DNA of 64,000 nucleotides from Deltaproteobacteria bacterium (GCA_029262535.1 JAJCZF010000083.1:37094-101093); one strand, 5' to 3'; shown: positions 8,741-63,226, counted from the first letter of the stretch. A program made the numbers and translations. The notes: generated from the sequence alone by a model not told the origin.

Positions 8741-9781
8741 TTAAAAGAGCTTATCCTGATCGTCGCCCTCACCTCTCTTTACAAAGGTGCGTCCGAGGTG
8801 CTCGTAGGCAATACGTGTTGCGACGCGCCCGCGCGGGGTGCGATGCAGGAACCCTTCTTGTATCAGATAGGGCTCGTAAAGGTCTTCTATCGCGTCGCGC
8901 TCTTCGTGCAGGGCGGCGGCGAGAGATTCGACACCCACGGGACCGCCGGAGAATTTATCAATAATCGTCAAAAGTATTCGGCGGTCCATCTTGTCAAAAC
9001 CTAAAGAGTCTATCTCTAACATATCGAGCGCCACGGCGGCTGTCTCTCCTGTGATGGTGCCGTCGCCCTTTACCTCGGCATAGTCTCTGACGCGTTTTAC
9101 AAGGCGGTTACAGATGCGCGGCGTGCCGCGCGAGCGCGCGCCTATCTCGGATGCGCCGTCAGAGCTTATCTCTGTATTAAGGATAGAGGCAGTGCGGTTT
9201 ACGATAGTCGTTATCTCGCTTGGGGAATAAAAATCGAGCCGCGCGATAAAACCGAAACGGTCGCGCAAGGGAGAGGTCAGGAGGCCAGCGCGGGTCGTCG
9301 CGCCTATTAGAGTAAAGCGCGGTATGTCGAGCCTGACCGAGCGGGCCGACGGCCCCTGCCCTATTATGATATCTATCTTAAAATCCTCCATCGCCGGATA
9401 TAGTATCTCTTCTATCGGGTTGGAGAGACGGTGTATCTCGTCTATAAAGAGGATATCGCCCTCTTCGAGATTGGTCAGTATGGCGGCGAGGTCGCCCTGT
9501 TTTTCAATGGCCGGGCCGGAGGTGCACTTTATATTCGCGCTCATCTCAAGGGCTATTATATTAGAGAGCGTCGTTTTGCCAAGCCCGGGAGGGCCGTATA
9601 GCAACGTATGGTCGAGCGGTTCGCCGCGCCCCTTTGCCGCCTCGATAAAGATTTCGAGATTCTCTTTGGTCTTCTCCTGCCCGATATATTCCGGCAGGGA
9701 ACGCGGACGAAGCGAGAGTTCAAAAGACTCGTCGCCAATCGCTTTTGCCGGCGTTATATTTTCATTCATGTCGGTCGTCAT
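8741..9781 (-). CDS. ruvB: Holliday junction branch-migration helicase RuvB
   Basis: 346 aa. [14 protein letters not shown], Walker [10 protein letters not shown], Walker B LFIDEIHR and a typical RuvB C-terminus. Confidence 0.95.
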
Positions 9782-9802
9782 CTTATCTCTGCTTATCTCT
9801 AA

Positions 9803-10408
9803 TCAGGCCTTACCCGATAAAATCTTTAGGGATTCTTTCAAAATGGTCTCAAAACCTGCGTCAGGATTATCCTTGGCAACCTTCCTGACCGCGTCGGTTG
9901 CGACATTCCTCTTGTAACCGAGATTCGATAAGGCGCTCAAGACGTCGTCGCAAAGCGCGTCGCCAAGGTTATCAGAGGAACTTCTGACCGCGCCCGATAG
10001 GGCGAGTTCGCCGACCTTTTCTTTCAATTCCAGAAGCAGCCTCTCGGCGGTCTTTTTACCGAGGCCGGGCACGCGCGTGAGCGTTGCGACATCACCATCG
10101 AGCACAGCCGCGGCAAAGTCCCCCACCGTAATGCCAGATAAGATGGAACAGCCAAGCTTCGGCCCTATTCCGGTGACGGTCGTAAGCAAGAGAAAGAGCC
10201 TCTTCTCGTCCACCGTATAAAAACCGTAGAGCTTAATGGAGTCTTCCTTTACCGCGGTATAGACCTTTAGAAAGACCTCCACGCCGGGCTCCGGCAGCGC
10301 ATAAAAGGTCGAGAGCGGCACGATGAGTTCGTATCCCACTCCATGAACGTCAACAATAATAGTGTCGGCGTTCTTCTCGGTCAGTATTCCTTTTAGAGTA
10401 GCTATCAT
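9803..10408 (-). CDS. ruvA: Holliday junction DNA-binding protein RuvA
   Basis: MIATLKGIL... is a typical RuvA N-terminus, with HhH motifs (GIGPK, GLGKKTAERL). ATG 10408 has an AGGA RBS. The GTG 10438 extension in the track runs into a REP palindrome. Confidence 0.9.
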   Translation of the reverse strand: MIATLKGILTEKNADTIIVDVHGVGYELIVPLSTFYALPEPGVEVFLKVYTAVKEDSIKLYGFYTVDEKRLFLLLTTVTGIGPKLGCSILSGITVGDFAAAVLDGDVATLTRVPGLGKKTAERLLLELKEKVGELALSGAVRSSSDNLGDALCDDVLSALSNLGYKRNVATDAVRKVAKDNPDAGFETILKESLKILSGKA

Positions 10409-10434
10409 CAGAGTATAATATCCTGTTATCGCCG

Positions 10435-10460
10435 CCACACAGGTGTGGTTTTATTTCGCG
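10435..10460. repeat. REP-like palindrome
   Basis: CCACACAGGTGTGGttttatttcgcg. Confidence 0.7.
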
Positions 10461-10527
10461 GTAAAAACCTTTTAGGAAACGGATGCTTTCTTACCCGCGC
10501 CCTAAAGACTTGTCAAAAACAGCTTTT

Positions 10528-11028
10528 CTACAATCTTCTATCCGTACCGCCCGCTAAGGCCAGGCGGTAGCTGTGGAGGTGGCATATGGCGGCGGCCAGA
10601 GAATCGGCCTCGTCCGCTCCGGGGGCCTTTTCTAACTTTAGGAGGCTCTTTACCATCTGCTGGACCTGCGCCTTTTCAGCCGAACCGTAACCGGTGACAG
10701 ACTGCTTGATCTCCTTGGGGCTATATTCGTATATTGAAAGACCGGCCTCGGCCCCCTTTAAGAGGACGACGCCGCGCACCTGGCTCATCACGACCATGCT
10801 CTTGACATTTTTGGAAAAAAATACGGACTCTATCGAGACGGCGTCGGGCCTGTGTGTTCTTATGACATCTTCGAGCGAGCGTGATATCTCAAGCAACTTT
10901 GACGAAAGACTGGCCTTTGCGCCGGGTTTTATCTCTCCGCTCGCTATGAGAGTAAGCCGCCCGCCGTCCTCATCGACAATACCATAACCTAAAACCCGCG
11001 AACCGGGGTCTATGCCGAGGACCTTCAT
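10528..11028 (-). CDS. ruvC: Crossover junction endodeoxyribonuclease RuvC
   Basis: 166 aa. MKVLGIDPGS..GYG N-terminus, with the catalytic acidic residues and overall pattern of RuvC. Confidence 0.9.
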   Translation of the reverse strand: MKVLGIDPGSRVLGYGIVDEDGGRLTLIASGEIKPGAKASLSSKLLEISRSLEDVIRTHRPDAVSIESVFFSKNVKSMVVMSQVRGVVLLKGAEAGLSIYEYSPKEIKQSVTGYGSAEKAQVQQMVKSLLKLEKAPGADEADSLAAAICHLHSYRLALAGGTDRRL

Positions 11029-48357: not shown

Positions 48358-50622
48358 TTAGTCGTCTATCTTCGATACGAAAGCGTCCTGGCCTCCGCCG
48401 TAACTCGACTGGTAGGCGTAGGTCGACTGAGGGTACTTGTCACTGTTACTAGAATCTGTGTTGCCACTGATATAGACCGTGCCGTCAACCGAACCTGTGT
48501 CGCAGGAGCCTATCGTAGCCAGCGTAATTTCATTGGCCCAATCGGTGCCGTCTCCGCCGAGGTATATGGAGTACTCAAGCGTAATAGTACCTATATCATA
48601 GTCGTCGTTAAATTTTGTTACGAAGGCGTCGACGCCTGTCTGGTCTCCAAAATTTGTCGAATCGGTATTTGGGAAATTGCTCGAAGCAGTCTTGCCGGTT
48701 ATATAGAACTCGTCGGTCGAGTCCACGGCAATACCGTAGGCATAGTCATCGTCCGTGCCGCCTATCAGGGTAGAGTAAACGAGGCTGTCCGAGCCCGACT
48801 CGCTCGTATCGAAGATTGAGACTAGCGCGTCAAGTCCACCCTGGTTTGAGCTATGGTATGCCCCGGTCGTCGTCGGATAGTCGTCAGTCGTACTGTCCTC
48901 ACTATATCCGGATACATAAATAAGACCGTCCGAGCCGAGCGTTAAGTCATATGACCATTCTTCTTCACTTCCCCCTATATATGTAGAGTAGAGCAGACCC
49001 GGAAGGCCGGCAGTACCCGTGTCAAACTTGGCCAAGTATATATCGCGATCTCCATAAAGCGAAGTATCATAAGCGTTTGTCGTTGTCGGGAAGTCACTGG
49101 ACTTGGTAGGGCCGCTCACATATGCGATCGATCCCTTTACGGCCACTCCTTGTGCAACATCACCGCCGGCGCCGCCAATATAACTGGTATATATAATACA
49201 GGAGTTATCAGAGGTATCGTATGTGCCGTCACAGTCGGACTTAACCTTAATGACAAAACCCTCCCAAATGGCGTAAGTTGAGCTATAGCTGGTATCAAAA
49301 CCCTTTCCGCTATTGAACATGGTATGCGAAGCCGTCAGGTAGCCGACGACATAGGCATTACCGTCATCGTCGAAATCAATGCCGCGGGCACTGCTTTCGT
49401 CACCCAAATCCATGCCATAGAGATAGATCAGCTCGCTACCGTCGTCATTGAGCTTTAAGACCGTAGCGTTAAAGGTATAATCCTGGGGATCATATGTGTC
49501 GTTAAGGTCGGCAAAGTTGTTGGAGCTGTTTTGTCCTATCGCGTAGACATTGCCGTCGCTGTCGACCTTCAGGTCGTATAGTGTGTCACTGCCGTCGCCG
49601 CCGATGTAGGTTGAATACTCGAGAGTAGCTGTGGCGTTAGTGAATATCTTCATCTTCGTTACGAACCAGTCGCATGTGCCGGCATTACTTTCCTGGTAGG
49701 CCCCGGTAGTAGTGGTGAAGCCGGTCCAGCTACAGGATGGCCCGCCGAGATAGATATAATCGTAGGTTCCGTCGTTATCCGAGGCGATGCCGTAGCCAAA
49801 CTCCCACGAATTTCCACCAAAATATGTCGAATAGTCAAGCGTCGGATCGATTATAAGCGGAAAATCTTTATCATATGACGCAACGACAAAGCCGTAGGCA
49901 TTGCCCTCTTTGCCCGCGCTCTCTACGAGCCTGAAAGCGCTTTCTATCTCAACCCTCTCGCCGTCTATTACCTGATAGGTAAAGGGCTTGTTATGGAGGT
50001 ACTTGCCTTTTTTCATCGATACTTCAAGCGCTCCACTCTCGGTAATAGATAACCCCTTGATGCCTTCATAAGATAGCACTACCGTGGCCGGGTCCGCGCC
50101 GGGTTTAACTATGACGTCGTACTCGACCGTATCTCCCTTACCGTAGAAGTGCATGTCCACGTCCTCGTAGACGCCCTTGTAGGTAATGCCCTCATAGGTC
50201 GGAATATTTTTATCCTTAAAGGAAGTCGTTATATAATTGATCTTGCCTTCTAGTTGTGTGCCGGGGGAGAGTGCTTTCATCGACATTGCACCGACAGGCA
50301 CGAGCTTTACCGTCGTGACCTCTACGTCTCCCTCAAGGGCCTTCATGGGATCGTTCATCGGGTTTGAGGCCGGTCCGTTCTTTAGCCTGAAAAAGCTCTG
50401 AAATATACCCTCTTCGGTAAAATATACGGACTTGTCATTCATCTTTGCATAGAATTTTACCGCCTTGTCCACCTGCCCCCTATTCTCGACGAAATATGTA
50501 GGGATTTTTCCGAGTTCACTTGCCGCGTCAGGGGCGCCCTTCTTCGCAAGCGCGTCCGTAGATGTAAAAGCAACGAGGGACGCAAGCACGGCAAGGGCCG
50601 TTACTACCAGTGATCTTTTCAT
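48358..50622 (-). CDS. Secreted SBBP-type beta-propeller repeat protein
   Basis: 754 aa with a signal peptide. At least 7 repeats of YSTYIGG.G.D....(I/V)..D..GN.Y..G.T.S.(D/N)FP.T..A. Confidence 0.7.
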   Translation of the reverse strand: MKRSLVVTALAVLASLVAFTSTDALAKKGAPDAASELGKIPTYFVENRGQVDKAVKFYAKMNDKSVYFTEEGIFQSFFRLKNGPASNPMNDPMKALEGDVEVTTVKLVPVGAMSMKALSPGTQLEGKINYITTSFKDKNIPTYEGITYKGVYEDVDMHFYGKGDTVEYDVIVKPGADPATVVLSYEGIKGLSITESGALEVSMKKGKYLHNKPFTYQVIDGERVEIESAFRLVESAGKEGNAYGFVVASYDKDFPLIIDPTLDYSTYFGGNSWEFGYGIASDNDGTYDYIYLGGPSCSWTGFTTTTGAYQESNAGTCDWFVTKMKIFTNATATLEYSTYIGGDGSDTLYDLKVDSDGNVYAIGQNSSNNFADLNDTYDPQDYTFNATVLKLNDDGSELIYLYGMDLGDESSARGIDFDDDGNAYVVGYLTASHTMFNSGKGFDTSYSSTYAIWEGFVIKVKSDCDGTYDTSDNSCIIYTSYIGGAGGDVAQGVAVKGSIAYVSGPTKSSDFPTTTNAYDTSLYGDRDIYLAKFDTGTAGLPGLLYSTYIGGSEEEWSYDLTLGSDGLIYVSGYSEDSTTDDYPTTTGAYHSSNQGGLDALVSIFDTSESGSDSLVYSTLIGGTDDDYAYGIAVDSTDEFYITGKTASSNFPNTDSTNFGDQTGVDAFVTKFNDDYDIGTITLEYSIYLGGDGTDWANEITLATIGSCDTGSVDGTVYISGNTDSSNSDKYPQSTYAYQSSYGGGQDAFVSKIDD

Positions 50623-50914
50623 AAAACACCTCTTCTTTTAAGGGGTTACACCCTCCAGCAGGTTTAACCGGAGGGTCTTCTCTGAACGTAAAAACGCCAA
50701 GAAAAAGCATCCTACGTCACGAATTCATACCACTTTTCAAGAGAAAACATATCGAGGTGTCGCTGTGGCATCAGCTACAAAGCCGATACTTTTTAAGATA
50801 TACAATTCAGCGGAAACTGTCAATACTTCATCCACTAAAACGTCAAAATCACACGAAGTTATTTAATTTAAAGAAAAACATATTAACAAGAAAGGGTTGC
50901 GAGATCACGACTCT

Positions 50915-52213
50915 CTAGCGTTCAGTCACTTGTGCCTCTCTCAATACCGTCGCCGTCGCTCCGTGGCGGCTTAGGGTGGCGGCTTTTTGGGCGGTTAGTC
51001 CGTCTTTTGTCGTGGCGGTGATATCCGCGCCCAACTCTATCAGGTACTTTACTACCTCGCTATGTCCGCCGATGGCGGCGACGATCAGGGGGGTGGCGTA
51101 GTTGCGTTTTTCGCGAGGCTCCAGCTCCGCGCCCGACTTAACCAGTAGCTTTACGGTATCGAGCGCCCCGGTCTGGGCGGCTATCAAGATGGGTGTCGCA
51201 CCGCTAGCGGCCCTGTGGTTCAGATCCGCCCCGGCCTCTAATAATAAAGTCACGACCTCTATGCCCGCATCGCTTTGAGCCGCAAGTATAAGCGCGGTCG
51301 CGCCGTTCAGGGCTTCGGCTGAGTGATCGGCTCCGGCATTGAGCAGCAATCTAACCGTATCGCTATGAGCGCCAAGCGCCGCTACCATCAGGGCGGTGAC
51401 ATTGCTGGTCGATTTTTTATTCACATCCGCGCCGCGCTCCAGGAGCAGCTTTACTAAATCCGAATAACCGCCGGACGAGGTCAGTATCAGGATCGTCTCG
51501 CCAGTATCGGCGCGTGCCGTTATATCGGCCCCGGCCTTAATGAGCAACCGGACGCATTCGGCTCGGTCGTTCTGCGCCGCCAGTACGAGGGCCGTATCGT
51601 TATTTAAGGATTTAAGATCAAGCTCCGCGCCCTTTTCTATAAGAAGAGAAAGAACGCCTTCATGACCGTTTTGAGCGGCGACCATCAGCGGGGTCGCGCC
51701 GTTTGTCAGGCGAGGATTAAGCTCTGCGCCCGCATCGACAAGCGCCCTTACTATTGGATCAAAGCCGTTTTGCGAAGCCATGAAGAGCGGTGTCGTTCCC
51801 TTAAGAGAGGCGATATTCAGATCCGCGCCCGACTTGATAAGCAGCTTTACTATCTCCTTGTGACCGCTCTCAGCGGCCAGCGTCAGAGGCGTAATACCTT
51901 TAAAGGTCTTTATATCGACATCGGCCCCGGCCTCAAGCAGAAGCCTTACGATCTCAAGATGACCGCTCTGCGCGGCGATAACGAGCGGGTTCACGCCGCC
52001 CTCGTCCACGACATTAAGATCAACACCCGACTCTATAAGCGAGCGCGCCTCGTCGGTATCAGCCAGGGCAACGGCCCTGATGAGCGGATTGGTCAAGAGA
52101 TCACCGCCCTCTGCGGCAGGCTCTGACGAGCATGAAGAGATCAGAAGTGAGAGAACGCAGAGTAAGGCTGCTACCCGCCGGATTGACGGCGTCAATATTT
52201 TATAAGATTGCAT
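50915..52213 (-). CDS. Ankyrin-repeat lipoprotein (about 12 ANK repeats)
   Basis: 432 aa. Lipobox LLISSC. It has regular 33-aa repeats G.TPL..AA..GH.E.V.LL...GAD.N. Confidence 0.85.
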   Translation of the reverse strand: MQSYKILTPSIRRVAALLCVLSLLISSCSSEPAAEGGDLLTNPLIRAVALADTDEARSLIESGVDLNVVDEGGVNPLVIAAQSGHLEIVRLLLEAGADVDIKTFKGITPLTLAAESGHKEIVKLLIKSGADLNIASLKGTTPLFMASQNGFDPIVRALVDAGAELNPRLTNGATPLMVAAQNGHEGVLSLLIEKGAELDLKSLNNDTALVLAAQNDRAECVRLLIKAGADITARADTGETILILTSSGGYSDLVKLLLERGADVNKKSTSNVTALMVAALGAHSDTVRLLLNAGADHSAEALNGATALILAAQSDAGIEVVTLLLEAGADLNHRAASGATPILIAAQTGALDTVKLLVKSGAELEPREKRNYATPLIVAAIGGHSEVVKYLIELGADITATTKDGLTAQKAATLSRHGATATVLREAQVTER

Positions 52214-53359: not shown

Positions 53360-54187
53360 TTATCCCAACAACTTCAACGCCGACTGCGGCTGGAGGTTGG
53401 CCTGCGCCTGTATGGCGATGGAGGCCTGTTCCAGGATGGAGTTGCGTGTAAGGTTGGCGGTCTCGGAGGCGTAGTCGAGGTCGCGAATTCTCGATTCGGC
53501 GGCCTGATAATTTACATTTGCGGCGTTCAGGTTCTCTACAACCACGCCTATCCTGTTAGAGATCGCGCCGAATGATGTCCGGGCTTCGTTGACCTTGCTT
53601 ATGGCGGCGTCGATATCGTCTATGGCCGACTGCGCAAGCTCCTGAGTGCCGATACCGGCGGCGAGACCGCCCGATAGAGTGCCGCTCGAAAGGTCTGAGA
53701 ACTCGACATCGAGCTTGTCGCCAAGGCCTGAGTTAAAGCCGACCTGAAGCGATATCGTCGGTGTTGAGCCGTCTAATAGCTTCTTGCCGTCGAACTCGGT
53801 CGTTCCGGCGATACGGTCAAGCTCCTCGCGCAATTGGCCGAACTCGGCATCTATGGCCGCCCTGCCCTCGTCGCTGACAAGCCCGTTTGCGCCGCTTATT
53901 GCCAGTTCTTTCATGCGCGCAAGGATATCACCTATCTGAGACGCGCCGGAATCGGCCACCTCAAGGGCGCTCGTTCCGTCATTCGTATTTCTTAGAGCGG
54001 ACTGAATGCCACGGCTCTGGGCGCTCAATTGATTGGCGCGCGCAAGGCCCGCAGCGTCGTCTGCCGCGCTATTTACCCTCAACCCGGTCGAGAGCCTCGT
54101 GAGATTGACCTTGAGCTGGTTATTTACATTTTTTATATTACTGCCCGCTATAAGCGCGTTGAGATTGGTATTGATATTGATAGCCAT
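53360..54187 (-). CDS. fliC: Flagellin, copy 1
   Basis: MAININTNLNAL start at ATG 54187 (GGGGGAGA RBS). Conserved N-terminal (RLSTGLRVNSAADDAAGL) and C-terminal (...ILEQASIAIQAQANLQPQSALKLLG) flagellin domains. Confidence 0.9.
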   Translation of the reverse strand: MAININTNLNALIAGSNIKNVNNQLKVNLTRLSTGLRVNSAADDAAGLARANQLSAQSRGIQSALRNTNDGTSALEVADSGASQIGDILARMKELAISGANGLVSDEGRAAIDAEFGQLREELDRIAGTTEFDGKKLLDGSTPTISLQVGFNSGLGDKLDVEFSDLSSGTLSGGLAAGIGTQELAQSAIDDIDAAISKVNEARTSFGAISNRIGVVVENLNAANVNYQAAESRIRDLDYASETANLTRNSILEQASIAIQAQANLQPQSALKLLG

Positions 54188-54310
54188 GGTATTTCTCCCC
54201 CGATGGTTGTGGTGGTAGGGACTGCGCAAGATGCGCAGAGTCTATACCTTATTATCCCAGCTTCTAATTATTCTGTCAAACTTACCCGGCGCGGTTGACC
54301 GCGCCCTTCA

Positions 54311-55114
54311 CTATGGACGCTCGGTTGACTTTTGGGCACCGGGCATCGACTCGCGCGCCTGTCTCGAAGCGGCCTCATCGAGCTTCTTATCTATAGCGTC
54401 CGAACTCTTCCCTGTCGTAGAATAGGAGTGAGGCACGGAATTGTTATTCTTCATCGTCATATCTTGCCCGCTCACATCTGTGCGAAGCCCCCCGTACGTA
54501 TTTACACTATGGAGTTCACGCTCCGCCGGGTTGCGCGCGACCTTAAGCTGGTCGGCCTCCGGCAACGAACCCGCGTCAAAACCCTTAAAGGCCTTCTGCT
54601 TCGCATTGCCGAACTTTCTCAGTCCTTCATAAGAGGTAATATCGACCCCTTTGGACTCTGCGCGTTCAGCCTGAAAACCCTTACGCTGCGCGTCACGTTC
54701 GATATCGTCAAGGCGCTCCATAGCCTTATCATTGCCATTGCCAGCGAGATTCTCAACCCTACCGGACTTTAAGGAAGAGGCGATTAGCGAGGCCTTCTCA
54801 TCAACGGTTGATATGACCTTTGAGACAAAGCCGATATCCGCAATCTTCGTTGATCTCTTGCCCGATGAGCCGCCGGCCTTTAGTTCGGTCAGGTTTGCCG
54901 GTCCTTCGGGTTTCTTCTTTATAGACCTGCTATCTTCAAGGGACCTTAAGGCCTCGGTCGATATTTTGACCTTGTCGGACATGGTCGCCTTGTAACCCTT
55001 CGGGTTACCGGTACTAAGCCCCCTCTTGGAGAGATTTGTCCTGTCGAAGGTCTCAACCTTGGACGCAAGCTCTCCGAGCCTTGAGCCGTTATCTACAGGC
55101 GAACTTATTGCCAT
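54311..55114 (-). CDS. Hypothetical Ser/Gly/Lys-rich protein in the flagellin locus
   Basis: 267 aa with a strong AGGAGG RBS, preceded by a sigma-28-type promoter. No motif recognised. Confidence 0.55.
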   Translation of the reverse strand: MAISSPVDNGSRLGELASKVETFDRTNLSKRGLSTGNPKGYKATMSDKVKISTEALRSLEDSRSIKKKPEGPANLTELKAGGSSGKRSTKIADIGFVSKVISTVDEKASLIASSLKSGRVENLAGNGNDKAMERLDDIERDAQRKGFQAERAESKGVDITSYEGLRKFGNAKQKAFKGFDAGSLPEADQLKVARNPAERELHSVNTYGGLRTDVSGQDMTMKNNNSVPHSYSTTGKSSDAIDKKLDEAASRQARESMPGAQKSTERP

Positions 55115-55239
55115 TAAAAAAAGCCTCCTAACATTCTGTCAAATACCGGTAAAGTATAATTAAATCAAGCTGTTGCCACCTTGAAGGCGTGGCGGCCTGC
55201 ATTATATAGGGGTCATCCCGTAAATTACCCCTAAATGCT

Positions 55240-55266
55240 TTATCGGACTCATAAAAAATAACTTTA
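55240..55266 (-). promoter_or_regulatory. Sigma-28 (FliA) promoter candidate
   Basis: The minus strand reads TAAAGTTA-N11-TCCGATAA against the consensus TAAAGTTT-N11-GCCGATAA (7/8 + 7/8, exact spacing). Confidence 0.55.
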
Positions 55267-55319
55267 GCGCTTTTTTAGATTTTTTATCTTTTTTTTTCAA
55301 AAACCCTCTAACTAACGGT

Positions 55320-56183
55320 TCAGTCCTTATTACCGTTGGACGTAGCGGGCGAGACCACGCCCTCAAGAAGGCCGAGCGCGACCCTGGGCTGTATATTTGC
55401 CTGCGCAAGCACCGATATGCCGGCGCTGAGAAGTATATTATTCTTGGTATAACGTACTGTTTCTTCGGCGAAATCTACGTCGCGTATGCGTGACTCGGCC
55501 CTAAGAAAGCCTGTTCTTGTAGATCCGAGATTATCGACTGCGGCCTTCAGGCGATTTGTCGCGGTGCCGAATGTCACCCGTGCGCTACCGACCGTGCTTA
55601 TTGCGCTATCAATTAAACTCAAGGCCGCGGCGGCCCCGGTCTGTGTAGATATCTGACCCGCGGCGAGGCTCAAGACATTGGCGCCTATATCAACGAGATC
55701 GATGCCTATCCTGTCGGCTGAGCTGCCGGCGTAACCGACCTGAAGACTGATCACCCCGCCGGCGGTCGAAAGCAGTTTATTGCCGTCGAACTCTGTGACC
55801 TGCGCTATCCTCTCCACCTCTCCCCTTAGCTCGTCCCACTCCGTGCTATATGCGCTCCGGGCCGAGGCGCTTATCGTGCCCGTAGCGGAACTCACGGCGA
55901 GCTCGTTCATCCTCGTAAGCAGTTCCGATATCTTTTCCGCGCTCTTGTCGGCTATCTCAAGCGCGCTTATACCGTCGTTCGTATTACGCAGGGCCGCCTG
56001 AATGCCGCGCGACTTGAGCCTCAGATGGTCTGCCCTGCCAAGCCCCGCCGGATCGTCCGAAGAGTCGTTAATCCTATAGCCGCTCGAAAGCTTGCGCGCG
56101 CTATCGGTCAGGCGAGAGAGCGTTGAAACAACATTATCAGACGCAATGAGAGCGGGGATATTGGTATTTATGGTCAAACTCAT
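55320..56183 (-). CDS. fliC: Flagellin, copy 2
   Basis: MSLTINTNIPAL start at ATG 56183 (AAGGTG RBS). Conserved flagellin N and C domains (KLSSGYRINDSSDDPAGL; ...LLSAGISVLAQANIQPRVALGLL). Confidence 0.9.
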   Translation of the reverse strand: MSLTINTNIPALIASDNVVSTLSRLTDSARKLSSGYRINDSSDDPAGLGRADHLRLKSRGIQAALRNTNDGISALEIADKSAEKISELLTRMNELAVSSATGTISASARSAYSTEWDELRGEVERIAQVTEFDGNKLLSTAGGVISLQVGYAGSSADRIGIDLVDIGANVLSLAAGQISTQTGAAAALSLIDSAISTVGSARVTFGTATNRLKAAVDNLGSTRTGFLRAESRIRDVDFAEETVRYTKNNILLSAGISVLAQANIQPRVALGLLEGVVSPATSNGNKD

Positions 56184-56454
56184 CTTAAAACACCTTAAAA
56201 CGTACAACTATATAAGTTGAACGAAGACGTGGACCGAAACCAAAGCTCAGACAAAGAATATCTATATAAAAAAACTTTTTTATTAGCGGGTTATTACCGG
56301 ATGAGACAAATTAAGTATTCCATAAAATGAGGGTTTTGTCTAGTGCTTACGGGTATGGAATGACTACCTGATATTATTGATTAAAGATGTTGCGGTAAGG
56401 GTTTGTCAAGCCGCACGTATATGTGTTAGAGTAGAGGTTCTCATTTACAAGCTA

Positions 56455-56483
56455 TTTAAATAGCAATATATATATGCTATAAT
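56455..56483 (+). promoter_or_regulatory. Candidate sigma-70 promoter of the five-gene cassette
   Basis: TTTAAA (56455-56460), 17 bp, TATAAT (56478-56483), within a 300-nt AT-rich intergenic region. Confidence 0.4.
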
Positions 56484-56509: not shown

Positions 56510-58651
56510 ATGAATACTAAAGACTTCGTAAAAGAGATAAAGCTTCATATAGAGGCCAGGTATCCGGTCCTTTGGCTCGTAAGCTTTGAAGAGCGACGCG
56601 TTGAAAAGGTCGTTGAAGAGCTTTGCAACAAGAGCGATACGCACTACTGGTCCTGGTCGGTCTCGCGCGGCCTTCGTAGCGGTAAGGACAGAAAGAAGGT
56701 CGAAAAGGTTGGACGCGAAAAGATCCTCACGACCATAGAAGAGAAGATAACAAAGAACGAAAATGTCAATAATCTCTTCGTCTTAAAGGATATCGCAACC
56801 TACTTCCACTCGCACGAGTTCCTGCGCAAGTTCCGCGATATACCGGAAATAACCGAAGAAAATCGCGCGCTTAATACCGTATGCATCCTTAGCCCGACGC
56901 TTAGCGAGATCCCGCCGGAGCTTGAAGAGGATATCGTCATAATCGAGCTGTCTCTGCCCGAATATGAAGAGATAGAAGAGCTAGTCCTAAAGACCTTTGG
57001 ACATATGATACCGAAAGAGTGGCACGATTCGACGCGCTCGGTCCTCTATAAGTCGCTTCAGGGCCTTTCTATGGATAATATCCGACGTGTTGTCAGAAAA
57101 GCGGTTAGCATCAACGATAATGTGCTAGACGAAAACTGCATCCAGTTCATACAGGACGAGAAACAACAGATAATAAAGAAGCAGCAGATACTCGACTACT
57201 ACCCGCACCGCGAGTCGATGGAGCATATCGGCGGCCTAGACGAGATAAAGAAGTGGTTCAACGAGCGTGAGCACGTATTTCGCCTCTCGAACGAGCGGAT
57301 CAACGGACTCGGCCTCGACATACCAAAAGGCCTGCTTCTCATAGGCGTACCCGGTTCGGGTAAATCTCTCTGCTGTAAGGCGCTTTCGGGCATATGGAAC
57401 CTTCCGCTCTTACGCATGGATGTCGGGCGTATATTCGGCTCTACCGTTGGTGAGTCGGAGAAGAATATACGCCGCTGCATCCAGCTGGCCGAGGCCGTAA
57501 GCCCGTGTATCCTCTGGATAGACGAGATAGACAAGGCATTTGGCGGCATACAGGGCTTTCAGGGCGACTCGGGCACGCAGCTGCGAGTATTCGGCACATT
57601 CATCACATGGCTTCAGGAGAAGGAAAAACCTGTCTTCGTCATCGCCACGGCGAACGAACCAAAGAACCTTCCGCCCGAACTATGGCGTAAGGGGCGTTAC
57701 GACGAGGTATTCTTTGTGGACCTGCCGAGCGCCGACGAGCGCGAGGATATCTTTAGGATACACCTCGAACGCAAAAACCAGGAGGTATCGCGCCTGAACC
57801 TTACCGACTTTGCCCAAAATAGCCAGGGCTATACCGGGGCCGAGATCGAACAGGCCGTAAAGGACGCCATCGTCGCCAACTTCAACAAGGTTCACGATGG
57901 CAGGAACTTCGAAGAGGCCGAAGACTTCATCAACGATATGGATACGATTGCCGTATCGCAGGACGAGATACTTGAGTCACTCAGGAATATCACGCCTCTA
58001 TCGGCCCTCAAGAAGGAAGAGATAGACGAGCTGCGCAAGTGGTCGCACCAGCGCGCACGCCCCGCCTCTCGCTCGCTCTTTCATCAGAGGGCGGAGTCAC
58101 TCAGCCCCGAAGAGCGTCGCAACCTCTCCATACACGAGGCGGGTCACACCATAACCATGTGGTATCATTTCAAAAAAGGTCCGGCATTCATGTCGATCGA
58201 TACCTACAAGGAATACGGCTCCTACCTGCCGATGGACGAGTCTTCCATGAAATCCTCCACAAAACGGGACCTTGAGAGGGAGATCGGCATAATACTCGGC
58301 GGCATGGTCGCAGAAGACGAGATGGGCGGGCTCGACTCGCGCACGGTCGGGGCCTCGCACGACCTCTCACAGGCCACGTCGCGCGCCAAGCAGATGGTCG
58401 TTGAATACGGTTTTGGCGATAATATCAGAAATACCAGCCTCATGGAGGTGCAGGACTACGCCCTCATATCGGGCCGCGAGATTTTGGAAGATATACAGAA
58501 GATAATAGATACGGCAAGGGAAGAGACCGAGGAGATAATAAACGAGAACAAAGAGGTCTTGGAAGCTCTCGTTCTATTACTCATCGAAAGCGTGCTCTTG
58601 AATCACGATGATATAGTACGCTTCTTTGCAAAACACCCTCTAAAGGACTGA
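56510..58651 (+). CDS. Soluble AAA+ ATPase (Ycf46-like N-terminus) fused to an FtsH-type M41 peptidase-like domain
   Basis: 713 aa with no TM segment. N-terminal IEARYPVLWLVSFEERRVE; Walker A GVPGSGKS (57344-57367); Walker B ILWIDEID; KGRYDEVFFVDLP; C-terminal HEAGH (58133-58147) and VGASHDLSQAT, as in FtsH. Confidence 0.85.
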   Translation: MNTKDFVKEIKLHIEARYPVLWLVSFEERRVEKVVEELCNKSDTHYWSWSVSRGLRSGKDRKKVEKVGREKILTTIEEKITKNENVNNLFVLKDIATYFHSHEFLRKFRDIPEITEENRALNTVCILSPTLSEIPPELEEDIVIIELSLPEYEEIEELVLKTFGHMIPKEWHDSTRSVLYKSLQGLSMDNIRRVVRKAVSINDNVLDENCIQFIQDEKQQIIKKQQILDYYPHRESMEHIGGLDEIKKWFNEREHVFRLSNERINGLGLDIPKGLLLIGVPGSGKSLCCKALSGIWNLPLLRMDVGRIFGSTVGESEKNIRRCIQLAEAVSPCILWIDEIDKAFGGIQGFQGDSGTQLRVFGTFITWLQEKEKPVFVIATANEPKNLPPELWRKGRYDEVFFVDLPSADEREDIFRIHLERKNQEVSRLNLTDFAQNSQGYTGAEIEQAVKDAIVANFNKVHDGRNFEEAEDFINDMDTIAVSQDEILESLRNITPLSALKKEEIDELRKWSHQRARPASRSLFHQRAESLSPEERRNLSIHEAGHTITMWYHFKKGPAFMSIDTYKEYGSYLPMDESSMKSSTKRDLEREIGIILGGMVAEDEMGGLDSRTVGASHDLSQATSRAKQMVVEYGFGDNIRNTSLMEVQDYALISGREILEDIQKIIDTAREETEEIINENKEVLEALVLLLIESVLLNHDDIVRFFAKHPLKD

Positions 58652-58659
58652 GGTGAGCC

Positions 58660-58998
58660 ATGTCATTTTTCACGGTTCTTAAGACCGAAATATCGAATAA
58701 GGATAATATGATCCTCGCCCTAAGATCTCTTGAAGAGTCGGGCGAGATACAGCGCCTCACCATCAACGAGGCAAAAGAGTCCATCGAAGTCGACCGCGAC
58801 GGCGACATCATGACGATTGAGAAGGAAAAGACCGGCACATACAATGTCGCAGGCAACAATACCGCCGTCGAACCCTTTTCAAAGAGACTCAAACAGATCT
58901 ACGCCTTGCAGACGATAAAGGAAAACCTGCCGCTCGACTTCGAGATATCGGAAGAGAGCGAGATAGCCGGAGAGATTCGGATTCTCCTAAAGGGATAA
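58660..58998 (+). CDS. DUF1257 (Ycf35)-like small protein
   Basis: 112 aa with GAGGTGAG RBS 8 nt after the upstream stop. The N-terminus MSFFTVLKTEISNKDNMILALRSLE resembles the remembered DUF1257 start MSHFTTIKT.I.D...L..AL.DLG. Confidence 0.65.
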   Translation: MSFFTVLKTEISNKDNMILALRSLEESGEIQRLTINEAKESIEVDRDGDIMTIEKEKTGTYNVAGNNTAVEPFSKRLKQIYALQTIKENLPLDFEISEESEIAGEIRILLKG

Positions 58999-58999
58999 T

Positions 59000-59200
59000 A
59001 TGGATAGAGAGATAAATATACGCATACTGCCGGACGGCAAGGTCGAAATCGACTCGACCGTCTTTAACGACTGCACAGAAGTCGCAAACCACCTCTCGAA
59101 ACATATCGGACAGGTCGAGTCCTTTCGGGTCAAAGAGGAACACGACCACTCCGACTCGAAGCTCGACAAGGGGGTAAAGGTGGATAAAAGCGATGGCTGA
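59000..59200 (+). CDS. DUF2997-like small protein
   Basis: 66 aa starting 1 nt after the upstream stop. INIRILPDGKVEIDS..F.DCTEV...L...IG resembles the remembered DUF2997 pattern. Confidence 0.55.
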   Translation: MDREINIRILPDGKVEIDSTVFNDCTEVANHLSKHIGQVESFRVKEEHDHSDSKLDKGVKVDKSDG

Positions 59201-59774
59201 CCAAGATAACGATATACGCATCAAGGCCCATGCCGTGCTCATGTCGAGCGACGTAAACGGGCCGGGAAGGCGCGCCGTTATATTCTTTCAGGGCTGCCCC
59301 TTCGACTGTGACGGCTGCTTCAACCCGGAGACACACTCCGAGTCGGACGGATATATGGTCAGCCCCAAAGAGATACTCGACGGCCTGCGTACCGACGAGA
59401 TAGAGGGTATCACCGTTAGCGGCGGCGACCCCTTTATGCAACCCGGCCCTCTTACCGAACTTCTGCGCCTTGCGCGCGACGAGTACGGGCTATCGACCGT
59501 CGTCTATACAGGTTACACGATAGAGCTCTTAAGAAAGAAAGCCGAGCTTGCAAGGCCGCTCGAATATATAGACGTTCTCATAGACGGCGGATTCGTGAGC
59601 CACCTGATGGAGCCCACGCTGCTTGCGCGCGGCTCGACCAACCAGCGCTTTCACTTTCTGACCGACTATTATGAGATAGGCGACTTCTACATGCCCTCAA
59701 AGGCCGAGATCGTAATACGGCCGGACGGCACCATTACCGGCACCGGCTTTAGAGAGACCCTTGGTCACCATTAA
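59193..59774 (+). CDS. NrdG/PflA-type radical-SAM activating enzyme
   Basis: 193 aa overlapping the upstream gene by 8 nt. NGPGRRAVIFFQGCPFDCDGCFNPETH carries CX3CX2C (59295-59318), and GITVSGGDPF is the SAM-binding GGE-like motif. Confidence 0.8.
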   Translation: MADQDNDIRIKAHAVLMSSDVNGPGRRAVIFFQGCPFDCDGCFNPETHSESDGYMVSPKEILDGLRTDEIEGITVSGGDPFMQPGPLTELLRLARDEYGLSTVVYTGYTIELLRKKAELARPLEYIDVLIDGGFVSHLMEPTLLARGSTNQRFHFLTDYYEIGDFYMPSKAEIVIRPDGTITGTGFRETLGHH

Positions 59775-59814
59775 AGTAGCCGGATTTCAAATTGAAAAAT
59801 TAAAGCGGCTCTAG

Positions 59815-59834
59815 GGAGTACTACGGAGTACTAC
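59815..59834 (+). repeat. Tandem 10-mer (GGAGTACTAC)x2
   Basis: Exact direct duplication 24 nt upstream of the Hsp70-like ATG. Each unit contains the palindrome AGTACT. Confidence 0.8.
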
Positions 59835-59857
59835 CCAGGCAACGCCGATAGCTAAAA

Positions 59858-62659
59858 ATGACCGAAGCTACCCCTGACGAGACATTTGAAGATATAAAGG
59901 CCATCTCCGACACCAAGGAGCGGAAGCTCGCCATGTTGCGCCTGCTCAAAGAGCTGGACGACTCCCCTTCAAACGCGCCTATATATGCCGGAGCCAAGGA
60001 GATCTTTTGTGCCCTTCCAGAGGAGGACGAGAAACGCGCGGCCCTGCACGAACTCATAATCTCGCTACCGATGGAGTCCTACTTTCTCGATATCTATCAC
60101 GACATCATATTCATCCTGCTCGACTCTGCCGAAAGGATCGAAGGCCAGAGATACCGTAAGTCTCAGCTCCTGCGTATCGCCAGCGAGATTCCTCTGGAGC
60201 CTGAATTTTTTCCTCTATTTAAAGACGCCATTAATCGCACCATCACGGCCTCTAACGCCTGCGACGAACTATTCGTAAGAAGGTACGCCCTCTTTAATAT
60301 AGCCGAACGCCTGCCCCTGGACGAAGAGTTTACCGAGATGCGCTACCGCGCCCTCTCGCTCGCGCTCGGCCTCTCAGACGAAGCACCGGAGCGCAGAGAC
60401 TCATGGGAGCTACTTGCATTTGAGCTACCCAAGGTATGCGACTATACTTTTTTCGTAGATAATACATTTCTGGGCATTGCCATCAGGATGCCCAAGACCG
60501 GTGTCTTTCGCCCCCTCTATATGCAGGCCATTGAGATTGCGCTTGAGGCCTCCGACCATATGGAGGAGCCCTATTTTAAAAAATACGCCCTGCTATACAT
60601 AGCGAAATCCCTTCCTAAGGAAGAGGTCTTCGAACCTCTCTACAGAAGGGCGCTCGAAAAGACCTGTGAAGCGGCAATGGATATCCGCGATCCTTTCATC
60701 AACCACATCACAGTGCTTGAGATACTCGAAGTATTACCAAAGACAGAGGCCTATTACCCGCTGATACTAACGCTCATAGAAAAGGTCCTGCCATTTTACT
60801 CGGTTAAGAGCAGGATAGACGACGTGGCGCTCCTGGACGTAATAGACTACATCATCATCGCCGAAGAACGCAAGATCGGCGAATCCAAAAAGAATCGCTA
60901 TACGCGCGAATCATACGCCAGAACATTTGCAAAAGTCCTGCTCTCCTTCGGTCTCGACCTGACCGACGTGCGCTTTATCGAACCTCTAAAACCCTATACG
61001 CATGTATGGATAAAACCCCCGGAACTTCGCGAAGCGGCCAGCAAGGTCGTCAACCACCTCGAAGGGCTAAAGACCCTCTACCACGGCGCAGAGCTACTGC
61101 GTCCCTTAATGGTATCGGAGAAACATCGCGGCGAAGAAGGCTTGTACCGGGGTATGAAAGAGGACGCCACGATGCGCGAGGCGAGCGACACAATCGTCAT
61201 CGACATCGGCGCGTCAAATACCATCATCATGAAAAAACGCCTCAAAGGGCGCGCAAACTATGTAGAGTTCAACGAGATATCGAGACGTTTCGGAGATGTC
61301 GTCACCATCCCTACCGTCTACAACGAACGCACCGACACCATCGGCACGGCGGCCTTAGAAGACGACGCCTCCCGTAAAGGTGTTAACATAAAAAAACTGC
61401 TTATCGGCGGCAACCCGCGCGGACGCGACCAGATGGCCCATTTCTTTAACCTCTTATTCGAGCGCATAAAGGAAGAACTCCAGCCGCGCGGCTGGAGAAA
61501 GATCATCTCAAGCGCACCGAGTGAGACATTTTATATAACCGTGCCGGTCGGCCTCACCGACTACAAAAACCGCCTCAAGGATATCATCACCGCCGAGGCA
61601 AAGGGCATACAGGCCGAGTTTATCGAAGAGCCGCTGGCCGCCGCCATAGGTTATCAGGTCGCCGAAGAGAGCGAAAAGCTTGTTATGCTGATGGACTTCG
61701 GCGGCTGTACGCTCGACGTCATGGCGCTTCGCATCTCGAGCGGGACCGTTCATGTCGTAGCCAAACCGGATCGCTCACAGCTCGTCGGCGGTCAGGATAT
61801 CGATTACTGGTTGGCCGAATACCTTGGCGAACGCGCCGAGCTGTCGGTCATCGGCAGCGAGCCGCACGCGGCCCTCATCAAAAAGGCGGAAGCGCTGAAG
61901 ATCGCTCTCTCGTCTCACCATGAAGTCCCCTTCGTATGGGAAGGTAGTGAACTCTTCAAGGTAACGCTACAGGATTTTGAAGAGCTACTTCAGGACCGCG
62001 ACTTCTACCGCACCGTGGACCGCGCCGCCTCCTTCGTGCTGGCAAAGTGCGCCAAGGTCGGCATCAAGACCGAGAACTTCGAGGCCGTGCTCCTAACGGG
62101 CGGCTCTAGCCAGATACCGTCCTTCAAGGAGAAGGTCGGCCATCTCTTCCCCGCGCTAAGGCGGACAAACGCGATATACGACCACAGCCCGCTATCTGCC
62201 GTCGCAACCGGCGCGGCCTACTACGGCACGCGCGACGTGGTAGACCGCCACCTCGCAATCGCATATGCCGTAAAATATGTAACCGGCGAAAAGAAGATCG
62301 CTCACGAACTGATACTGGAAAAAGGCGAACCCCTGCCCTTCGAACGCACCTTCCGCGCAGACCCCGCCCAAACACTCGGAGAACAGAACCAGATCTCAAT
62401 TGAACTATACGAGATCCCCGACGCCCTGATAACGAGACGCTGGGAGCTGACCGGCGGATTCGAATATATAAAACAGGTAATAAAAGAGTCCGAAGATACC
62501 GAAGATATAGAACTAAAACCGCTAAAGATAATCACCCTGCCCTACAACCGCGAGATCACCGGCGAAGAGGAGGTAACCTTCGTACTCGACGAAACCGGCC
62601 GCCTCAAGATCAAATACGATAAAGGTAAAGAAGTCGATTCGGGGATAAGGCTGCAGTAA
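59858..62659 (+). CDS. Helical-repeat domain fused to an Hsp70/DnaK-like ATPase with lidless beta substrate-binding-like domain
   Basis: 933 aa. Hsp70 motifs IVIDIGASNT, FYITVPVG, EEPLAAAIGY, MLMDFGGCTLDV, GGQDID, VLLTGGSSQIPSF and PLSAVATGAAYYG. The N-terminal 430 aa contain about 8 repeats of a ~40-aa unit. Confidence 0.8.
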   Translation: MTEATPDETFEDIKAISDTKERKLAMLRLLKELDDSPSNAPIYAGAKEIFCALPEEDEKRAALHELIISLPMESYFLDIYHDIIFILLDSAERIEGQRYRKSQLLRIASEIPLEPEFFPLFKDAINRTITASNACDELFVRRYALFNIAERLPLDEEFTEMRYRALSLALGLSDEAPERRDSWELLAFELPKVCDYTFFVDNTFLGIAIRMPKTGVFRPLYMQAIEIALEASDHMEEPYFKKYALLYIAKSLPKEEVFEPLYRRALEKTCEAAMDIRDPFINHITVLEILEVLPKTEAYYPLILTLIEKVLPFYSVKSRIDDVALLDVIDYIIIAEERKIGESKKNRYTRESYARTFAKVLLSFGLDLTDVRFIEPLKPYTHVWIKPPELREAASKVVNHLEGLKTLYHGAELLRPLMVSEKHRGEEGLYRGMKEDATMREASDTIVIDIGASNTIIMKKRLKGRANYVEFNEISRRFGDVVTIPTVYNERTDTIGTAALEDDASRKGVNIKKLLIGGNPRGRDQMAHFFNLLFERIKEELQPRGWRKIISSAPSETFYITVPVGLTDYKNRLKDIITAEAKGIQAEFIEEPLAAAIGYQVAEESEKLVMLMDFGGCTLDVMALRISSGTVHVVAKPDRSQLVGGQDIDYWLAEYLGERAELSVIGSEPHAALIKKAEALKIALSSHHEVPFVWEGSELFKVTLQDFEELLQDRDFYRTVDRAASFVLAKCAKVGIKTENFEAVLLTGGSSQIPSFKEKVGHLFPALRRTNAIYDHSPLSAVATGAAYYGTRDVVDRHLAIAYAVKYVTGEKKIAHELILEKGEPLPFERTFRADPAQTLGEQNQISIELYEIPDALITRRWELTGGFEYIKQVIKESEDTEDIELKPLKIITLPYNREITGEEEVTFVLDETGRLKIKYDKGKEVDSGIRLQ

Positions 62660-62828: not shown

Positions 62829-63226
62829 CCGGGCTTCGCCGTGCGGGTCTGTGAAGACTGGTATTTTTTGTCTTGCTTCGCGCTTTGTGGGGGGAGTTAC
62901 GCTCTCTGATTCCGTCGCAAAAGCGCTCCTCCCTTTATGTTCGCTCCACCCCCCACGGGGGTGTTTTTTTTTTGTAAGGATGAGGACGATTAGATAGAGA
63001 CAAATGCACGATGCATTGGCTCCGCCCTCTTCCCTCACGGCGCGCGCCATTCCCTTTCGCACCGCTCCTATTGGAACGGTCGGGATGCTCAAAAACGTGA
63101 ATAGCACCCGCCGTAGCACGCAATGCGTGCGTTAATTTCGCGCAACCACCACCGAGTAGTTTGCAAATCCTTCCAAGCGCGAAATAACCGGCCCTCTTCC
63201 TCAAGGTTAAAAACATTGTTTTAAAA
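62829..63226 (+). repeat. Non-coding element, copy B (~400 nt)
   Basis: Collinear with 31214-31718 apart from a 104-nt indel and scattered substitutions. Confidence 0.8.
62947..62973 (+). terminator. Intrinsic terminator inside element copy B
   Basis: CACCCCC-cac-GGGGGTG followed by T10. Confidence 0.6.

Follow-up and report, generated by a model that had tools for sequence, protein, structure and literature searches.

Conservation of Ycf46, Ycf35 (DUF1257) and DUF2997 extends from plastids and cyanobacteria to archaea, and we know of no biochemical function for any of them. The cyanobacterial three-gene operon that contains ycf46 is induced by severe oxidative stress in a ppGpp-dependent manner (bioRxiv 10.1101/2025.07.21.665879), and the DUF2997 and DUF1257 (ycf35) genes cluster with the ferredoxin gene fed7 (PMC4284462). 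Here, we describe a five-gene cassette that contains this trio in an enlarged form. It lies on the plus strand, at positions 56510-62659, of a 64,000-nucleotide (nt) stretch from a Deltaproteobacteria bacterium (GCA_029262535.1, JAJCZF010000083.1:37094-101093), which was analysed at its full length and is hereafter called the window. The cassette joins a Ycf46-type AAA+ ATPase fused to an M41 peptidase (P1), two small proteins which are probably divergent members of DUF1257 (P2) and DUF2997 (P3), an NrdG-like radical S-adenosylmethionine (radical-SAM) enzyme (P4) and an alpha-solenoid fused to a lid-less Hsp70 (P5). An earlier description of the locus, made from its sequence alone and called here the sequence-only reading, had described the trio as a stress-responsive module, in agreement with the two sources cited above. 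We propose, with a probability of about one half, that the cassette encodes a self-contained cytosolic machine for ATP-driven unfolding and degradation, derived from the Ycf46/DUF1257/DUF2997 stress module and including a radical-SAM step on a protein partner.

In the six-frame list of open reading frames (ORFs), the five co-directional genes are separated by 8, 1, -8 and 83 nt, exactly as the sequence-only reading had reported, the genes encoding P3 and P4 overlapping by 8 nt. The AT-rich region of 300 nt, the promoter TTTAAA-N17-TATAAT and the terminator about 290 nt downstream which it had described were also recovered: the GC content of the approximately 300 nt upstream of P1 is 0.39-0.41, versus about 0.52 in the genes, and the terminator-like hairpin lies 288 nt past the P5 stop codon (Table 1). 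The conservation of this arrangement was examined in a tblastn survey of 61 loci, with flanks of up to 10 kb at loci other than the window (individual loci are cited below by L numbers). An M41-type P1 orthologue was present in 44 loci from other genomes and metagenomes, and P2 to P5 follow on the same strand and in the same order in all of the 38 that offer enough sequence; at the remaining six, the contig ends no more than 1.2 kb from P1. The cassette was seen in the gene tables of four independent places, and such a five-gene arrangement is far beyond chance. Because the gaps are short, a single promoter and a single terminator are present and the gene order is identical in the 38 testable loci, the five genes probably form one operon. 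Profile searches and a comparison of gene neighbourhoods had been proposed by the sequence-only reading as checks on its claim. Since the former back the family assignments (that of P2 by profile-profile comparison only) and the latter revealed synteny in 38/38 loci, the claim of a five-gene cassette stands.

The promoter is itself a recurrent feature. A TTGACA-N17-TGnTAnAAT promoter is found at about the same distance upstream of P1 orthologues in many lineages; among 37 distinct upstream regions, ATTTGACA occurs in 12 and TGnTATAAT in 9, and a near-consensus promoter followed by a short leader precedes P1 in L007-L011, L016-L018, L026, L028, L031, L033, L042 and the window. This recurrence suggests that transcription is strong, simple and of the sigma-70 type, and does not rely on a specialised stress promoter. 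The same 37 regions contain no FNR/CRP, CIRCE or sigma-32 motif and one loose sigma-54-like match. Between positions 55000 and 64000 there are no Rfam matches and no tRNAs, and no notable inverted repeats were found downstream of P5. All five proteins are free of hydrophobic segments, with a maximum 19-residue mean of 1.47 on the Kyte-Doolittle scale.

Table 1. Coordinates of the cassette genes, their predicted domains and the flanking signals, counted from the first letter of the window
Feature	Coordinates	Strand	Description
Sigma-70-type promoter TTTAAA-N17-(TG)nTATAAT	56455-56483	+	~27 nt 5' of the P1 ATG; 10/12 plus TG extension
P1	56510-58651	+	713 aa; soluble tandem-AAA metalloprotease: predicted inactive D1, active classic AAA D2, peptidase M41
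P1, D1-like domain	56510-57208	+	residues 1-233; predicted degenerate AAA+, no Walker A
P1, active classic AAA module	57209-58069	+	residues 234-520; Walker A GVPGSGKS, Walker B ILWIDEID
P1, M41 zinc peptidase	58100-58618	+	residues 531-703; HEAGH, GASHD
P2	58660-58998	+	112 aa; probable divergent DUF1257 (Ycf35-like) protein
P3	59000-59200	+	66 aa; probable DUF2997-type small protein
P4	59193-59774	+	193 aa; NrdG-like radical-SAM enzyme
P4, C-terminal extension	59655-59774	+	residues 155-193, ~35 aa past the NrdG core
P5	59858-62659	+	933 aa; alpha-solenoid fused to lid-less Hsp70
P5, helical repeats	59858-60802	+	residues 1-315; ~7 helical hairpins of 41 residues, LP motif
P5, Hsp70 part	61190-62650	+	residues 445-931; nucleotide-binding domain, then beta-rich SBD-beta-like domain, no alpha-helical lid
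Intrinsic-terminator-like hairpin CACCCCCCACGGGGGTG then T10	62947-62973	+	7-pair stem, 6 pairs G-C

P1 is a soluble AAA+ protease. Pfam recognises an AAA domain (3.8e-30) and a Peptidase_M41 domain (7.9e-21), and the highest 19-residue Kyte-Doolittle mean of 1.3 leaves no transmembrane segment, which bears out the absence of a membrane anchor claimed from the sequence. The motifs that had been quoted for the cassette (GVPGSGKS, ILWIDEID, HEAGH, GASHD, CPFDCDGC and MSFFTVLKTEI) are all present. HEAGH aligns to the HEAGH of FtsH and GASHD to GAENDL (Aquifex FtsH chains 2di4 and 4ww0), both are kept in the P1 orthologues, and the protein follows the FtsH-type order of a classic AAA module and an M41 domain with HEXXH and an Asp as third zinc ligand. 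Against the FtsH equivalog TIGR01241, P1 scores 179 bits and does not reach the cut-off of 600; the best PDB sequence matches of its AAA module are the D2 domains of VAT and Cdc48 (3e-56), with FtsH at 4e-39. Ycf46-type ATPases that lack M41, from distant taxa (L044-L057), align in tblastn with residues 1-520 at 33-42% identity, and the shared patterns TWLQEKEK and LW[IV]DE[IV][ED]K retrieve 563 relatives. The link between P1 and Ycf46 is drawn from source names and gene context, several orthologues being called 'SpoVK/Ycf46/Vps4 family' by the Joint Genome Institute (JGI).

The N-terminal region of P1 had been read as a Ycf46-like N-terminus. The homology to Ycf46-type ATPases holds, but the region itself is predicted to be a degenerate AAA+ domain. 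A sequence search of residues 1-233 gave no PDB match; their AlphaFold model (pLDDT 87.7, pTM 0.80) was compared with the PDB using Foldseek, and all of the top 50 matches are AAA+ modules (among them RFC, TRIP13, Vps4, RuvB and FtsH; TMq 0.45-0.63). Because this D1 model is AAA+-like and lacks a Walker A motif, P1 consists, as far as the model goes, of a D1 that is inactive, followed by an active D2 and the M41 domain. Positions that are at least 90% invariant among the orthologues make up 54% of D1, 62% of D2 and 30% of the protease domain, and the conservation of D1 above that of the protease domain fits a role as an interaction platform.

The two small proteins are more difficult to place. 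P2 and two of its orthologues gave no match to PF06868 (DUF1257) in Pfam, even at E-values up to 10. However, an alignment of 20 P2 orthologues was matched by hhalign to three Pfam-verified DUF1257 proteins (94.7% probability, E 5.9e-8, 108 of 112 columns), and a hidden Markov model (HMM) of the verified members matches 27 P2 orthologues, the HMM searches being reciprocal. P2 is thereby, through profile-profile comparison only, a probable divergent DUF1257 protein. Its invariants are an MSF(Y/F)T N-terminus, an LPLDFEI motif and Gly residues, and a sequence search gave no PDB match. P3 scored 20.9 bits against the Pfam model of DUF2997 (PF11211, cut-off 24.1 bits), and two orthologues scored 21.8 and 15.6, over profile positions 1-45; an HMM of Pfam-verified DUF2997 proteins matches all 35 P3 orthologues (E <= 2.2e-4, in a small database). 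With its beta-hairpin I.I.I..DGKVE and its single invariant Cys, P3 is probably a divergent DUF2997 protein. The labels DUF1257-like and DUF2997-like given by the sequence-only reading were in this way recovered, although each escapes the ordinary Pfam search. As a separate observation, the most invariant motif of P2, NLPLDFEI (58924-58947), resembles the LP motif of the P5 repeats, for example ERLPLDEEF (60311-60334), which may be a coincidence.

P4 had been described as an NrdG/PflA-type enzyme, and the profiles concur: Pfam assigns Fer4_12 (2.5e-33) and Radical_SAM (4.9e-11), and the best NCBIfam family is NrdG (TIGR02491) with 116.9 bits, which is below the cut-off of 126.1. The CX3CX2C motif (CPFDCDGC) and the GGE-type SAM motif GGDPF are conserved, and neither a SPASM nor an RRE domain was detected with Pfam or NCBIfam. 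The simplest interpretation would be that P4 is a plain NrdG serving an NrdD encoded elsewhere, and that its position in the cassette reflects co-regulation rather than a shared mechanism. NrdG is indeed its best-scoring family, residues 21-158 are 30-43% identical to phage NrdG, and some orthologues carry the JGI annotation of anaerobic ribonucleotide reductase activase. We nevertheless regard this interpretation as very unlikely. Canonical phage NrdG directly follows nrdD, and a tblastn query with NrdD of phage SP18 finds NrdD directly upstream of NrdG in L062-L064, whereas the same query finds none in the window or at any of about 140 cassette and Ycf46 loci (the search covered 64 kb of the source genome and at most 10 kb of flank elsewhere, not whole genomes). 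P4 also carries a C-terminal extension that NrdD-linked NrdG lacks. Its consensus, E-h-x-h-x-x-D/N-G-x-h-x-h-x-G-h (h, hydrophobic), is specific to Ycf46-linked radical-SAM proteins; the P4 family HMM, of 191 positions, is covered up to positions 182-188 in most Ycf46-linked homologues and up to 151-153 in NrdD-linked phage NrdG, and 2207 of 2222 phage NrdG matches span less than 80% of P4. In a neighbour-joining tree built without bootstrap, the Ycf46-linked enzymes group with those of the cassette, apart from NrdD-linked NrdG. Because of this extension, the gene linkage and the tree grouping, we place P4 in an NrdG-like subgroup of its own, one that goes with Ycf46 ATPases.

This linkage, which also argues against a plain NrdG, spans two domains of life and is seen in Asgard archaea, Firmicutes, Actinobacteria and metagenomic lineages. 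In the survey loci whose ATPase lacks M41, DUF1257 and DUF2997 genes verified by Pfam stand beside the gene for the Ycf46-type ATPase, and a P4-like radical-SAM gene adjoins the ATPase in 4 of the 14 genomic loci. L044, from Promethearchaeota (Asgard), has DUF1257, DUF2997, ATPase and radical-SAM genes; L046, from a high-GC deltaproteobacterium, has ATPase, DUF1257, DUF2997, HEAT-protein and Hsp70-like genes, then a radical-SAM gene on the opposite strand; L053 (Lachnospiraceae) and L054 (Georgenia) likewise contain verified DUF1257 and DUF2997 genes and a P4-like gene. A metagenome census was made of 80 Ycf46-type loci, picked by two peptide patterns from the alignment of Ycf46 ATPases and often lying on short contigs. 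A P4-like radical-SAM gene was found in 14 of these loci, often immediately next to the ATPase gene or overlapping it, DUF2997 in 28, DUF1257 in 16 and an Hsp70-like gene in 2, and neither M41 nor NrdD in any (0/80 each). An ATPase with a C-terminal M41 domain was absent from all 94 non-cassette Ycf46 loci. The sequence-only reading was thus right that no glycyl-radical enzyme lies near P4, but the radical-SAM gene is not peculiar to the cassette, being a recurrent Ycf46 partner in distant lineages, and P4 is an orphan only as regards glycyl-radical enzymes.

Several of these loci show further arrangements. In L104, an 882-aa frame (8103-10751, minus strand) ends in an NrdG-like radical-SAM domain (residues 705-840) and adjoins DUF2997 and a Ycf46 ATPase; no Pfam family matches its long N-terminal part, possibly an artefact of ORF calling in high-GC DNA. 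L117 (997-8602) and L125 (7022-15240) each encode two FGE-sulfatase-domain proteins and a lid-less Hsp70-like protein of about 540 aa, L125 having in addition a 684-aa HEAT-repeat protein and L117 two Ycf46 paralogues.

The proximity of radical-SAM and DUF2997 genes raises another possibility, which overlaps with our preferred explanation, namely that P4 modifies P3 or P2 and that the small protein is a product rather than an adaptor: a modified peptide, a cofactor carrier or a radical-bearing switch, which the AAA protease and the Hsp70 would process or present. Of the 14 metagenomic Ycf46 loci that have a radical-SAM gene, 11 have DUF2997 next to it, as do L044, L046, L053 and L054, and the overlap of the P3 and P4 genes, the invariant Cys of P3 and the invariant Gly residues of P2 are in keeping with such a modification. 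So is the N-terminal hairpin of the DUF2997 HMM, whose alignment to the P4 tail keeps the same register in almost every homologue, but this similarity is statistically insecure. P2 and P3 are, moreover, conserved over their whole length, with no leader/core split and no hypervariable region; P4 has no SPASM or RRE domain of the kind searched for above, Pfam reveals no transporter or immunity gene in the cassette, and the Ycf46/DUF1257/DUF2997 trio is widespread without any radical-SAM gene. A small protein as end product therefore seems to us quite unlikely. The C-terminal hairpin of P4 (AEIVIRPDGTITGTGF, 59655-59774) also resembles the N-terminal hairpin of P3 (INIRILPDGKVEIDS, 59000-59060).

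P5 combines two parts. Pfam matches HSP70 (3.7e-19) in the nucleotide-binding part only; the best NCBIfam match is HscA, with 90.7 bits, and the scores against Hsp70 equivalogs range from 61 to 91, versus cut-offs of at least 620. The phosphate-1, phosphate-2 and adenosine motifs of the Hsp70 ATPase (IDIGASNT, DFGGCTLD and TGGSSQIP) are kept in the orthologues. For residues 445-931, the top Foldseek matches in the PDB are lid-truncated DnaK and BiP, aligned through their nucleotide-binding domain (NBD) and the beta part of their substrate-binding domain (SBD-beta) over about 540-570 columns, and the predicted structure stops after the beta domain, without a lid; pLDDT in the SBD-beta region is about 50-80. 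The N-terminal repeats have LP motifs at residues 70, 111, 152, 211, 252 and 293 and no Pfam match. Residues 1-315 are modelled as paired helices (pLDDT 85-94) and are HEAT/ARM-like by shape only. Among 1.84 billion proteins, residues 1-440 match only 21 representative clusters, nearly all of them full-length orthologues. The AlphaFold model was built on an alignment of five sequences, all full-length relatives, because DnaK swamped the candidates in the word-index search. The sequence-only view of P5, an Hsp70 with N-terminal repeats and no lid, agrees with these results. No J-domain or GrpE family was matched by Pfam in the five cassette proteins.

Taken together, we infer, as the sequence-only reading had suggested, a role in protein remodelling or degradation, and we propose the following mechanism. 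Like other classic AAA proteins, P1 would assemble into a ring, here one without a membrane anchor, in which D1 makes up an inactive tier, D2 is the active motor and the zinc protease forms a chamber of the FtsH type. The D1 tier may be a docking platform for P2 and P3, acting as adaptors or regulators, and the alpha-solenoid and lid-less Hsp70 of P5 would capture a client and then hand it over. P4 may be a physical partner of the ATPase. NrdG/PflA-type activases act on protein substrates, and P4 could in the same way abstract a hydrogen atom from a protein, either a component of the machine or a client, so that the system would depend on reducing, oxygen-poor conditions. A setting of redox, oxygen or nitric oxide (NO) stress is suggested by the cyanobacterial ycf46 data, the clustering with fed7 and the nitrate-reductase, nor-like and hemerythrin genes that adjoin some cassettes; a likely task in bacteria with an anaerobic or microaerophilic life would be to control the quality of proteins sensitive to oxygen or NO, or to switch them. 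As the protease, the solenoid-Hsp70 and the radical-SAM enzyme are attached to it, the Ycf46 module is strongly suggested to work on proteins. The subgroup to which P4 belongs is linked to Ycf46 and, in the loci examined, never to NrdD, which points to a target of the 'activase' other than a classical glycyl-radical enzyme.

A more specific version of this proposal, to which we give little credence at present, is that P4 generates a radical, glycyl-type or elsewhere on the backbone, in a component of the AAA+ machine which is not itself an enzyme, creating an oxygen- and NO-labile switch that gates unfolding and proteolysis. The most plausible target would then be DUF2997, followed by DUF1257 or the D1 ring. 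If true, the radical would sit on a regulatory protein and not on an enzyme, and a module present in archaea, bacteria and plastids would have its first biochemical function. More generally, the cassette ties a protease output, a client-handling solenoid-Hsp70 and a radical-SAM enzyme to the Ycf46 module. It offers a handle on a module whose role has long been obscure, and its proteins are small and soluble, hence directly testable. P4 orthologues now named anaerobic ribonucleotide reductase activase in databases are probably mis-annotated.

Several observations weigh against a degradation machine with a radical-SAM step. The glycyl-radical motif R[VIT][SCATG]G[YFW] is missing from all open frames of 100 aa or more in the 64-kb window, the pattern covering the canonical type only. 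The P5 model has an overall pLDDT of 69, with moderate confidence in its Hsp70 part. Hsp70-like and helical-repeat proteins do recur beside Ycf46 ATPases, in L046, L117 and L125, but their sequences do not establish orthology with P5. On an HMM of the P5 Hsp70, DnaK scores at least as well as the Hsp70s of L046 and L117, and homology of the P5 N-terminal domain to the HEAT proteins of other Ycf46 loci was rejected at the sequence level by hhalign (probability 0.1%); given both results, the recurrence is an architectural theme and not proven descent. On the P4 tail, the DUF2997 HMM reaches a weak 1-7 bits, versus a shuffled maximum of 3.8. A DUF2997 domain in the tail was therefore rejected in spite of the consistent register and, the scores being so low, we claim neither homology nor a shared docking site. 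Every carrier of the cassette is an uncultured organism, resembling either sulfate reducers or Nitrospira. Finally, the respiratory and hemerythrin neighbours on which the proposed setting draws are lineage-specific and are not present in this window.

The distribution of the cassette bears on whether it could be a conflict system instead. Median identities to the window proteins are 71% for P1, 53% for P2, 57% for P3, 53% for P4 and 43% for P5. Very many close P1 relatives, of 711-718 aa and 69-80% identity, occur in metagenome-assembled genomes whose source labels are Deltaproteobacteria, Thermodesulfobacteriota and Nitrospirae/Nitrospirota. The flanks vary by lineage: BipA and a DEAD-box helicase; narGHJI and pdxJ/acpS; rtcB/archease and nor-like genes. 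Some cassettes adjoin narGHJI, a hemerythrin gene cluster or nor-like genes, and in the window the flanks of the cassette hold flagellin, ankyrin, glycogen synthase and ammonium transporter genes. An anti-phage or conflict system, modelled on IetAS or on chaperone-based conflict systems dependent on nucleoside triphosphates, would have a chaperone and AAA+ sensing core that triggers M41 proteolysis or P4 radical chemistry on infection. The sequence-only reading had left a conflict module as an alternative, which gained no positive support from PADLOC or from viral contigs. The differing genomic contexts, the resemblance of the P1 AAA domain to IetA and a weak match of P5 to a defence candidate speak for it, and Ycf46 ATPases with variable accessories (radical-SAM, Hsp70, HEAT, FGE-sulfatase) follow a grammar known from conflict systems (PMC7159879). 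The content of the cassette is, however, invariant and very conserved (P1 orthologues are 59-80% identical across phyla), with no variable effector; its flanks are housekeeping or respiratory, and the Pfam tables of the loci show no integrase, restriction-modification or toxin gene. PADLOC-DB v2 gives domain-level matches only, namely the IetA model PDLC02196 on the P1 AAA domain (108.8 bits), pVip (21.8 bits) and a weak match of P5 to the candidate PDC-M61B (24.2 bits), with none for P2 and P3. In cyanobacteria, moreover, it is abiotic stress to which the relatives respond (bioRxiv 10.1101/2025.07.21.665879). We thus consider a conflict system unlikely. A known defence system was rejected on the same PADLOC matches, which stay at the domain level for the cassette and for the distant Ycf46 loci, and a phage origin was rejected as no P1 relative was found among viral contigs.

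A further gene set accompanies the cassette in Nitrospirota-type loci. DUF2299, hemerythrin, a NosD/beta-helix-like protein and a protein of about 116 aa are encoded by four genes tightly linked to the cassette, either directly upstream in the same orientation or shortly downstream in convergent orientation (L004:7407-9991, L023:5451-7991, L060:4420-7218, L001:12036-14681, L019:9655-12183 and L041:7888-10418). This set comes after narGHJI in L004 and L060, and is not found in the window or in the deltaproteobacterial loci.

Three other regions of the window deserve mention. The minus strand at 53360-56207, divergent from the cassette, encodes a pair of flagellin-like paralogues (289 and 295 aa) and, between their genes, a 267-aa protein without Pfam hit. 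At 48358-52213, also on the minus strand, a 753-aa protein with DUF7948 and an SBBP beta-propeller adjoins a 431-aa protein composed almost entirely of ankyrin repeats, an architecture unusual among bacteria. On the plus strand, a 911-aa ORF at 28243-30978 matches no Pfam family at E <= 1e-4.

In a full-text literature search, no description was found of the cassette, of the M41 fusion or of the linkage between Ycf46 and radical-SAM enzymes, in line with the earlier claim that the system had not been described, and Ycf46 does not appear in the Aravind-lab survey of chaperone-based conflict systems. The cassette can nevertheless be compared, part by part, with known systems. With IetAS it shares the pairing of a classic-clade AAA+ ATPase with a protease and the resemblance of the P1 AAA domain to IetA noted above, although P1 reaches 98 bits against NCBIfam IteA (cut-off 510). 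IetS is, in addition, a separate serine protease, whereas the protease of the cassette is a fused M41 metalloprotease, and no IetS-like gene is present. Like FtsH, P1 places the peptidase with its HEXXH and downstream Asp after a classic AAA module; unlike FtsH, it has neither a transmembrane anchor nor a periplasmic domain, has an extra N-terminal AAA module that is predicted to be degenerate, and its AAA is nearer to D2 of Cdc48 and VAT.

P4 resembles the NrdG/PflA activases in its minimal Fer4_12-type radical-SAM fold, its CX3CX2C and its GGE-type motif, and differs from NrdG in its score below the cut-off, its C-terminal extension of about 35 aa, the lack of a glycyl-radical enzyme in cis and its link to Ycf46 ATPases. 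P5 has the NBD motifs of DnaK and HscA, and its predicted fold, of moderate confidence in the Hsp70 part, aligns with the NBD and SBD-beta of DnaK and BiP. It departs from the Hsp70 family by the missing lid and by a 440-aa N-terminal alpha-solenoid found only in the P5 family, and from Hsp70 systems by scores far below the equivalog cut-offs and by a cassette that contains neither a J-domain nor a GrpE gene. Diol and glycerol dehydratase reactivases (DdrAB/GdrAB) are Hsp70-like ATPases serving a radical enzyme encoded next to them. They are a precedent for an ATPase of the Hsp70/actin fold dedicated to a radical enzyme, and offer an analogy only. Their radical chemistry is B12-dependent, and they have no AAA protease or small-protein partner.

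The closest relative is the Ycf46/DUF1257/DUF2997 module itself, with which the cassette shares the adjacency of the three genes and, within P1 residues 1-520, homology to Ycf46-type ATPases that includes TWLQEKEK. It differs in the M41 domain borne at the C-terminus of the ATPase, in the addition of the radical-SAM enzyme and the solenoid-Hsp70, and in small proteins too divergent for Pfam thresholds. The folds and the core module are known. Their combination into one system appears to be undescribed, as does the dedicated radical-SAM subgroup; the cassette is the most elaborate variant of the Ycf46/DUF1257/DUF2997 module seen here.

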